Virus record (IMG/VR): IMGVR_UViG_3300005573_000075
Location: 25,781-89,780 of that record
Direction: 5' to 3' (one strand)
Origin: a virus
Lineage: Duplodnaviria; Caudoviricetes
Length of the DNA stretch: 64,000 bases
Positions 456 to 1,606 of the stretch are shown in pieces (the stretch's first letter is position 1; each line of letters begins with the position of its first letter). The notes beneath the pieces were generated by a model. That model made no database searches and was not told the DNA's origin. It saw nothing but the letters and a program-made list of their open reading frames with translations. The position numbers and the translations under genes were made by a program.

Positions 456-480
456 ATGACAATGAAGGGTATATATAATA
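456..480 (+). promoter_or_regulatory. Phage-type promoter-like motif upstream of tnpB copy 1
   Basis: ATGACA-ATGAAGGGTATA-TATAAT with a 12-nt spacer, ending 4 nt before the ATG; same motif at 3819, 33532, 61682 and 61445 (-). Confidence 0.6.
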
Positions 481-483
481 GAT

Positions 484-1581
484 ATGGTAAGATTAACCTA
501 TTATTGTAATTTAAAAGGTAATAAAGAGAAACTAGCGTTTCTGGAACAGCAATATAAATATGCTCAAATAATAGCTAGGTATTACCTTTGGTATATCAAA
601 TCAACTAAAGAGTATAGGAAATCAGAAATACATAAAGTTACATATGAAAAAATAAGAACTAAGTATCCATTTCTGTATTCTAAATTAATACAACATATAA
701 GGAATAAAGTGTTAGCTTCAGTAAAAGCTAAAAAACTCTATAAAGTCAAAAAATTAAATATTCCTCTAATTTTTGATTATCAAAATTTTGATATAGGATT
801 TAAAGAAGGTTACTATAATGCATGGATAAGATTGTGTAAAAATAATTATCCATTAGAAGGTTTAAGAACGATTAATAAGTTAAAAGAAGTAGTAAGTATA
901 AAAGAGATTCAAATAAAAAAGATAAACAATGCATGGAGAATATACTTCATATGTGAGGTAAAAGAAAACAATAATGTTAAAGGAAATCAGAGGTTAGGTA
1001 TAGATATCAACATAAAAAATATAACCCTTTCAAATAATAAAAGATTCAATCTAAAACAATATGTTCATAAAAAAATAGAATACAGAAAGCATAAACAAAA
1101 GGATAAAATAGTAAGATACTCTAAAGATTTCTTCCATAAGTTGACTTCTGAGTTGGTTAAGTATCTAATAGAAATGGGAGGTTCTCAAATTATATTAGAG
1201 AATCTAACTAATATTAGGAAGTCAAGTTCTAGAAAAGAAGGAACATCTAAAGGGAAAAATGTAAATTACTTAATCAATAATGTATTTCTGTATAAGATGT
1301 TTCAAGAGTTTCTAGAGTATAAATGTAAGTTAAATGGGATAGAAGTTAAATATATCAATCCAAGGAATACTAGTAAGACTTGTGAATGTGGATCCATGGA
1401 TACTAATAGACCTAAACAAAGTCTATTAATATGTAATACTTGTGGAAGAAGATTAAACGCAGATTTAAATGGAGCTAAAAACATCTTGAAGTTTTCACTT
1501 CAAGATGGGTCGCCGAGTCGTTCCGACCCGTCTGAACTCCTTAAACAAAACAGACAAGCCCTCGGCTTTAGCCGTGGGTAG
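484..1581 (+). CDS. tnpB: TnpB RNA-guided endonuclease (RuvC + zinc finger)
   Basis: RuvC acidic residues intact (LGIDIN, ILENL, NADLNGAKNI); TSKTC..CG..CxxCG zinc finger; located inside IS ends. Confidence 0.93.
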   Translation: MVRLTYYCNLKGNKEKLAFLEQQYKYAQIIARYYLWYIKSTKEYRKSEIHKVTYEKIRTKYPFLYSKLIQHIRNKVLASVKAKKLYKVKKLNIPLIFDYQNFDIGFKEGYYNAWIRLCKNNYPLEGLRTINKLKEVVSIKEIQIKKINNAWRIYFICEVKENNNVKGNQRLGIDINIKNITLSNNKRFNLKQYVHKKIEYRKHKQKDKIVRYSKDFFHKLTSELVKYLIEMGGSQIILENLTNIRKSSSRKEGTSKGKNVNYLINNVFLYKMFQEFLEYKCKLNGIEVKYINPRNTSKTCECGSMDTNRPKQSLLICNTCGRRLNADLNGAKNILKFSLQDGSPSRSDPSELLKQNRQALGFSRG

Positions 1582-1606
1582 ATGACTTTAAGCATAAATC
1601 AATGTG
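1490..1606 (+). ncRNA. Putative TnpB omega/reRNA 3' scaffold plus flank-derived guide (guide starts at 1587, TTTAAGCATAAATCAATGTG)
   Basis: Stem GATGGGTCG/CGACCCGTC and the terminal hairpin are conserved in both IS copies; TnpB guides are known to extend past the right end. The 5' boundary is uncertain. Confidence 0.6.

Follow-up and report, generated by a model that had tools for sequence, protein, structure and literature searches.

A tnpB-only transposable element with a phage promoter-like motif upstream of its nuclease gene in a hot-spring virus

The tnpB elements and their distribution in the phage genome

The stretch of DNA analysed here (the window, 64,000 nt) comprises bases 25781-89780 of IMG/VR record IMGVR_UViG_3300005573_000075, an 89,780-bp virus genome of 31% G+C that is rated complete by CheckV; positions are given either as window or as genome coordinates, which we keep apart throughout. 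Among public runs, two hot-spring metagenome DNA runs contain the stretch and no RNA run is listed as holding it. One long plus-strand block of the genome encodes the large terminase, portal, head protease, a split LigD kit, the tail sheath and tail genes, and a minus-strand block across the ends of the record encodes RuvB-like, RuvC, DNA methylase, macro-domain and chaperonin-like proteins. Most phage genes have strong Shine-Dalgarno sites (ca. 60% to 70% of genes other than tnpB).

Three tnpB genes are present in this genome: copy 1 (window 484..1581, plus strand; 365 aa; Pfam Cas12f1-like_TNB, E = 1.6e-20), copy 2 (window 61711..62811, plus strand; 366 aa) and copy 3 (genome 5506-6606), which lies outside the window and was missed by the initial annotation, whose mention of "both tnpB genes" is correct for the two inside it. 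The proteins of copies 1 and 2 are 91% identical to each other and match Pfam Cas12f1-like_TNB (PF07282) with E values of ca. 1e-20 to 1e-21. The RuvC D-E-D triad, which the initial annotation had described as intact, is indeed present in all three copies (D174, E239 and D327). Across the family, D174, E239 and four zinc-finger cysteines are invariant in 15/15 members and D327 is found in 14/15, and in an alignment with solved TnpB/Cas12f structures the RuvC-II glutamate, the RuvC-III aspartate and both zinc-finger pairs match. All copies have the zinc-ribbon TNB domain, with a complete CxxC...CxxC in copy 2 and a CxC first pair in copies 1 and 3 that results from a common one-residue deletion absent from all relatives. 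The start codon of tnpB corresponds to the conserved N-terminus of the family.

Pairwise comparison of the three tnpB copies gave dN/dS ratios of 0.12-0.18 (copy 1 versus the others, 0.16-0.18) at a dS of 0.21-0.42, which means that all three have been kept protein-coding over substantial divergence; judged by these ratios, the copies are under purifying selection. Variants are shared among them in a mosaic fashion, with the zinc-finger deletion common to copies 1 and 3, a 49-nt segment upstream of the motif described below kept in copies 2 and 3 and lost from copy 1, and a variant of omega-RNA helix 2 common to copies 1 and 2. This pattern suggests gene conversion among the three copies.

Alignment of the three copies revealed sharp element boundaries with no flanking direct repeat. 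The left end of copy 1 (window 395..446, plus strand) is common to all copies and contains a subterminal hairpin (415-434), while that of copy 2 (window 61572..61671, plus strand; hairpin 61592-61611) includes the 49-nt segment. Both the hairpin and conserved bases after it are also kept in three relatives of the element (L101, L108 and L005). Immediately 5' of the left ends lies the tetranucleotide TTAT (plus strand; window 391..394 for copy 1, 61568..61571 for copy 2), the probable target and TAM. It precedes the common left-end sequence at 5/5 junctions, i.e., those of the three full copies and two mini-elements, and the bases further upstream differ; TTAT is the predicted TAM of TnpB.

The right end stops five bases beyond the tnpB stop codon, at window 1586 in copy 1 and 62816 in copy 2, and carries a subterminal hairpin similar to that of the left end. 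Overlapping the 3' end of tnpB, the last ca. 120 nt of the element (omega-RNA scaffold and right end; window 1468..1586 for copy 1 and 62698..62816 for copy 2, both plus strand) fold into four helices. In an RNAalifold consensus of 10 related elements, 13 of the 32 pairs hold through changes on both sides, so that the initial annotation's claim of intact omega-RNA stems is backed by covariation; no Rfam family matched anywhere over the window, the omega-RNA included. Homology among the copies ends at window 1586, directly before the predicted guide of copy 1 (window 1587..1606, plus strand), which is the 3' flank of the right end and overlaps the start of a primase-polymerase ORF at 1602. Neither this guide nor that of copy 2 (window 62817..62836, plus strand) has a second target in the genome, each matching its own flank only.

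Besides the three full copies, the genome holds three decayed remnants of the element. Two are mini-elements of ca. 46-58 nt that are preceded by TTAT: one of 46 nt (window 57680..57725, plus strand) in which the start of the left end is fused to a right-end-type hairpin and terminus, and one (genome 509-566) in which it is fused to the right-end terminus. The latter adjoins a methylase-like gene for whose truncation we found no clear evidence. The third remnant, found on the minus strand, consists of a right-end hairpin and terminus standing alone (window 57956..57988). From these junctions, the element has visited at least five TTAT sites in this genome. We found no tnpA (PF01797) in the whole 89.8-kb record, confirming its absence as first noted for the window, so that TnpA must have been needed in trans at some time.

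By sequence, the element is a selfish, non-autonomous (tnpA-less, IS1341-type) TnpB/omega-RNA element of the IS200/IS605 family. The initial annotation had instead raised the possibility of a domesticated nuclease. True domestication would mean that the three TnpB/omega-RNA loci serve the phage, either in competitor exclusion or in processing of its own genome, and have lost their mobility; the three paralogues with their dN/dS of 0.12-0.18, the absence of tnpA and the phage-type motif upstream of the copies could all be read in this way. However, the element has kept both of its ends and its TTAT junctions intact, the mini-elements represent turnover typical of a selfish element, the guides spell local flanks with no retargeting, and selfish homing accounts equally well for purifying selection. 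With three copies and three remnants fitting a selfish element, we consider domestication very improbable.

A gene-start motif between the left end and tnpB

Downstream of the left-end hairpin and ahead of the tnpB start codon, each full copy carries inside the element boundaries a 35-nt motif composed of an A-tract, a TGACAAT core, a G-run and a closing TATAAT. In copy 1 it spans window 447..481 (plus strand, 48 bits) with TATAAT at 474-479 and the ATG at 484, and in copy 2 window 61672..61708 (plus strand) with a 1-nt insertion, TATAAT at 61701-61706 and the ATG at 61711. The start codon of tnpB begins 4 nt past TATAAT in all three copies and none of them is preceded by an AGGAGG-type Shine-Dalgarno site at a usable distance, as the initial annotation had read for copies 1 and 2. 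The G-run, lying 14 nt before the ATG, could be viewed as a remote Shine-Dalgarno of tnpB; we rejected this reading, since other motif sites have a separate Shine-Dalgarno further downstream.

A weight-matrix scan of the whole genome detected nine motif sites at 15-48 bits, compared to no more than 8.4 bits in shuffled sequences; three are those in the IS copies and six are non-IS sites. Two of the latter lie in the window, at 3810..3845 (plus strand, 45 bits; followed by a hairpin at 3842-3875, a Shine-Dalgarno site and an in-frame ATG at 3897) and at 33523..33557 (plus strand, 48 bits; between the tail-chaperone gene and a 105-aa gene at 33572). These are the occurrences that had been recorded at 3819 and 33532, within one base of the cores of the two sites. 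The others are found at genome 8245, where the motif heads the whole plus-strand block at a divergent region, at genome 13153, at genome 18811 after the portal gene, where an ORF at 18848 shares the TATAAT-N4-ATG layout of tnpB, and, as a weaker match on the minus strand, at genome 7070.

A co-oriented start codon follows each of the six non-IS sites at a distance of 2-51 nt. These sites stand at the head of the plus-strand block ahead of the terminase, a 727-aa gene, the protease/capsid block that follows the portal, one gene each behind the primase-polymerase and the tail chaperone, and the first gene of the minus strand; five of the six head virion-gene clusters. As the minus-strand gene preceded by a motif variant is presumably early, a "late" label would not be clean.

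From its position and orientation, the motif is best read as a putative promoter. Its geometry departs from that of canonical sigma-70 promoters (spacing of 16-18 nt), with the TGACA-type core only 12 nt from TATAAT, and a sigma-70 consensus scan did not call the motif sites and returned matches at chance level only. If TATAAT acts as -10 element, transcription beginning 7 nt further on would start at the G of the ATG, and a leaderless start on the A would need a slightly shifted -10 or an unusually short distance. The conserved block of the motif occupies what we take to be the place of the MotA box in T4 middle promoters, a likeness intended as analogy only. We detected neither a sigma-70 region 2 or 4 nor a T7-type RNA polymerase in the genome (for the polymerase family, the positive control also gave no match), and among 20 early-region ORFs no regulator was named by PHROGs or Pfam.

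Alternatively, the motif might be another kind of cis element, such as the site of a DNA-binding protein or a signal for RNA processing or translation, in which case tnpB would share a regulator with the phage genes and not a transcription start. The non-canonical geometry would fit this idea, as would the facts that the best-conserved part (TGACAAT core and G-run) sits where the sigma-70 spacer would be and that the site at window 3810 lies inside a long open frame. Yet all sites are close upstream of a start codon and co-oriented with it, all share an upstream A-tract and a closing TATAAT-like hexamer, and one heads the whole plus-strand block at a divergent region. Moreover, copies 2 and 3 of tnpB are oriented opposite to the genes around them (copy 2 amid minus-strand genes) and need a promoter of their own. 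We thus regard a non-promoter function as unlikely.

With only 4 nt between TATAAT and ATG, we infer that the tnpB message is leaderless or nearly so. In an archaeal host, the A-tract could instead be a TATA box ca. 27 nt before the tnpB ATG. This is less likely, given that the phage encodes RuvB and RuvC of bacterial type and uses strong Shine-Dalgarno sites, and the host is probably bacterial.

Relatives of the element and the origin of the motif

All close tnpB relatives (59-85% identity) came from viral or metagenome contigs, and those contigs that are long enough to judge are mostly phage-like, with the context of L101 being uncertain. For example, L006 resides in a 125-kb virus, L107 beside a sheath gene and L104 beside YopX and RNA-ligase genes. 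A search of 185,579 prokaryotic species, each represented by one genome, yielded no close chromosomal relative; its best match reached 51% identity and was located on a 136-kb MAG contig. A blastn comparison of the element with 50,697 phage records gave no match.

At 63-85% protein identity, the relatives keep the left-end hairpin and/or the N-terminus of TnpB, while the region upstream of the gene is unrelated to the motif. In fact, the stretch from the tail of the left-end hairpin to the ATG differs in every lineage: L004, L006, L105 and L005 have a different TATAAT-containing region in common that comes with a weak Shine-Dalgarno site, in L101 a TATAAT precedes the ATG by 8 nt, in L108 no more than ca. 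15 nt separate the conserved tail from the ATG, and L104, L008, L009 and L014 (50-63% identity) carry tnpA directly upstream of tnpB. For the closest relative, the sequence upstream of tnpB occurs only once within the 125-kb phage genome, so the wiring of tnpB to a multi-copy phage motif is specific to the present phage. The motif itself is absent from the records of five relatives that were searched whole, and we did not find it in IMG/VR or, save for one chance match in an unrelated context, in JGI metagenome contigs. Chromosomal copies of the element bearing the motif, the observation that would have spoken for an IS-native origin, were likewise sought in three collections and not found.

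Could the motif nonetheless be native to the IS, such that the six gene-start copies of the phage derive from the element? It is carried inside a mobile element that visited at least five or six sites of this genome, and a region as variable among relatives as that upstream of tnpB could have arisen inside the IS. Against this, no left-end or right-end sequence occurs next to any of the non-IS sites, homology at these sites is confined to the 35-40 nt motif, and none of nine relatives examined (0/9) carries it. Furthermore, the terminase, capsid and tail blocks would have needed promoters before any IS arrived. An origin of the phage motif from the IS is therefore highly unlikely in our judgement, and by parsimony the IS would have gained the motif on the branch leading to the copies of this phage, before their spread and divergence. 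The initial annotation's contrast between a phage motif and an IS promoter needs amending to this extent: the region upstream of tnpB is indeed a copy of a multi-copy phage motif, but this copy lies inside the IS boundaries and therefore travels with the element. The comparison with the nearest homologs supports tnpB being wired to a putative phage promoter.

The resemblance might also be that of a generic strong promoter of host type, with TnpB being passive IS cargo that has no phage-specific schedule or role. Elements of the IS200/IS605 family with only tnpB are common in phages, cases have been described in the literature, and ends and guide layout of the element are wholly canonical. Nevertheless, the identity among sites spans ca. 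35 nt and takes in positions left unconstrained by a generic -35/-10 promoter, and the sigma-70 consensus scan passes over them. The lack of a close chromosomal member among the 185,579 species genomes and the purifying selection on all three copies after substantial divergence likewise speak against cargo, and we give this explanation only a small chance.

Proposed mechanism and comparison with known systems

We consider it probable that phage-resident tnpB-only elements captured a phage gene-start motif, that TnpB is thereby read by the machinery serving the phage promoters, and that it acts in selfish RNA-guided cutting. In a capture step, the variable stretch between left-end hairpin and tnpB ATG would have been replaced by the 35-nt phage motif. 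The promoter-bearing element would then have moved to the TTAT sites, at least five in number, with TnpA supplied in trans. The transcription of tnpB would most likely fall to whichever machinery recognises the promoters of the phage itself, and for copies 2 and 3 their antisense orientation implies reliance on the putative internal promoter. Since five of the six sites outside the IS copies stand at the head of virion-gene clusters, the likeliest schedule is alongside the virion genes, and the nuclease is probably switched on together with them. The omega-RNA would come from the same transcript as tnpB, as is known for TnpB, and the leaderless-type layout would have its counterpart in the phage ORF at genome 18848.

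The expected activity would be RNA-guided cutting of element-less sites consisting of TTAT and the flank, e.g., in co-infecting relatives, after which the element would be copied into the cut genome by recombination. A role of TnpB in homing or competition is therefore plausible. Neither a close relative of the phage nor an IS-less allele was found in the collections searched: the closest portal homologues are only 46-55% identical, GC-rich and without the motif, and the phage ligase has no relative in metagenome contigs.

A more far-reaching version, which we put forward tentatively and consider clearly less probable than the capture itself, is that this TnpB/omega-RNA lineage has been built into the virion-gene programme as an RNA-guided homing or marker-exclusion nuclease. 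TTAT-flanked element-less alleles would then be cut when many genome copies are present, and copying would be carried out by the phage's RuvB, RuvC, UvsW-like helicase and split LigD. Each of the three loci would bias how its own genome region is inherited and be maintained by purifying selection for this reason, forming an RNA-guided analogue of the seg, mob and intron endonucleases of phage T4.

TnpB is the ancestor of Cas12, and to the best of our knowledge its natural role has so far been shown only in bacterial chromosomes and plasmids. What appears new in the present element is a phage promoter-like motif copy internal to a TnpB element; we found no description of a TnpB element with a captured phage promoter in the literature. 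If true, OMEGA elements would adapt their expression to a viral programme like protein-guided homing endonucleases did in T4, which is now made testable, as is RNA-guided homing between co-infecting phages. At 59% identity or more, the lineage has been met only on phage-like or unplaced contigs and in no reference genome searched. As a resource, it offers a compact, presumably thermophilic TnpB of 365 aa with a predicted TTAT TAM and a well-defined omega-RNA as well as a natural CxC versus CxxC zinc-finger pair for comparison.

As an element, it is an ordinary member of the tnpB-only IS200/IS605 group. Like ISDra2 TnpB (PDB 8bf8/8exa/8h1j) and the ISGst elements of Geobacillus, for which TnpB has been described as a homing nuclease (PMC10055086), it combines a RuvC D-E-D nuclease and zinc-ribbon TNB domain with an omega-RNA scaffold that starts within the 3' end of the gene and runs to the right end, and its guide is flanking DNA. 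Subterminal hairpins, insertion 3' of a short target (here TTAT) and PATE-like decayed mini-elements are further common features. The similarity to ISDra2 TnpB itself is weak (E = 0.003), and the phage protein is nearer to Cas12f-like and other TnpB structures. Unlike in these systems, there is no tnpA anywhere in the phage genome, and the close relatives of its element (at least 59% identity) are mostly phage-like where contigs are long enough to judge, with the context of L101 uncertain. The region upstream of its tnpB also differs in being a copy of the resident phage's multi-copy gene-start motif.

TldRs, the TnpB-like nuclease-dead repressors that represent domesticated TnpB (PMC13565253), share with the phage protein the descent from TnpB, an adjacent guide RNA and mobile or prophage contexts. 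In TldRs, however, the catalytic residues and transposon ends are gone and the guides are directed at a promoter elsewhere, whereas triad and both ends of the phage element are intact and its guides match its own flanks only, so that it does not fit the nuclease-dead TldR type.

Among phage-borne genes, transcription of the tnpB locus of cyanophage A-1(L) rises strongly during infection (bioRxiv 10.64898/2026.02.14.705889), and Thermus Lalka phages have tnpB copies beside CRISPR-like arrays (PMC11437467); both were reported without a mechanism. Although A-1(L) likewise carries tnpB in a phage genome, its copy is identical to host chromosomal copies and thus reflects a recent hop. The element studied here differs from the A-1(L) and Lalka cases by three old, diverged copies, by the phage-type upstream motif and by having no chromosomal counterpart in the genomes searched.

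A parallel in terms of expression is offered by phage T4, whose intron homing endonucleases are driven by their own middle or late T4 promoters (PMC2988022), and a published proposal for OMEGA elements holds that the transposon homes into co-infecting phages independently of TnpA (PMC13565253). The T4 nucleases are intron-borne and guided by protein (GIY-YIG or HNH), whereas the phage TnpB is RNA-guided and resides in a transposon with intact ends; for T4, promoters and timing were mapped experimentally, while we infer both for the phage TnpB. Like I-TevI-type genes, tnpB is nevertheless a selfish nuclease gene in a phage. It is directly preceded by a motif that it shares with six phage gene starts, a putative promoter of phage class, and such an arrangement would tie its expression to the phage programme and favour the copying of the element into element-less co-infecting genomes.

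IS copy 1 and the primase-polymerase ORF

Codon arithmetic on the flanks of IS copy 1 (window 326-394 and 1587-1604), one of the three tnpA-less IS200/IS605-family elements of this phage, indicates that without the element (window 395-1586) the ligase and primase-polymerase frames would be in register and separated solely by the ligase TGA (window 326-328), so that IS copy 1 lies within the linker between the two members of a split LigD-like pair. The primase-polymerase ORF itself (window 1602-4166; 854 aa) carries five to six tandem units of 96 nt, or 32 codons, at window 3079-3686 that are 78-84% identical to each other. 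Its frame stays open across the 35-nt, promoter-like gene-start motif of the phage and the hairpin that follows, as far as an in-frame ATG at window 3897, and the ORF may thus give rise to two products. Most of this ORF is also enclosed by a pair of 61-nt direct repeats (window 1612-1672 and 3742-3802; copies 92% identical), of which the first begins 26 nt downstream of the IS copy 1 right end and the second ends 7 nt 5' of the motif at window 3810.

Possible exchange among IS copies, and remnants of further insertions

When the three IS copies are compared from the TTAT at their left ends through their right ends (copy 1, window 391-1586; copy 2, window 61568-62816; copy 3, genome 5362-6606, counted on the whole record), the variants common to pairs of copies form a mosaic, with a zinc-finger deletion in copies 1 and 3, a 49-nt segment in copies 2 and 3, and a variant of omega-RNA helix 2 in copies 1 and 2, which points to gene conversion between them. 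A 110-nt segment is present twice at 95% identity, once 250 nt past IS copy 2 on its downstream side (window 63064-63173) and once directly abutting the left end of IS copy 3 (genome 5258-5367), where the homology ends no more than a few bases from the insertion point; it may be flanking DNA that was taken along or a recombination scar.

Two mini-elements, each preceded by TTAT, that join the start of the left end to the terminus of the right end (window 57680-57725 and genome 509-566), together with a minus-strand solo right-end hairpin (window 57956-57988), are leftovers of additional insertions by the same IS.

Other sequence features and tnpA-bearing relatives

About 15-45 nt past the right end of IS copy 2, a weak hairpin rich in A+T, with seven consecutive T behind it (window 62830-62862), could form the end of the copy 2 tnpB/omega-RNA transcript; it has too few G-C pairs to be called by the terminator scan. 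Close to the record's right end, an 8-nt A+T unit is repeated in tandem about 12 times (window 63901-63996). Outside the window, the divergent region at the boundary between the minus and plus blocks (genome 7100-8250) contains internal repeats and the motif in both orientations, at 7070 on the minus strand and 8245 on the plus strand.

Complete tnpA-tnpB elements are found on contigs L104 (7634-9095) and L008, L009 and L014 (around 2600-4090). These elements are more distant relatives (50-63% identity) on phage-like contigs, one of which carries several TnpB genes, and phages of this kind could be a source of TnpA in trans.
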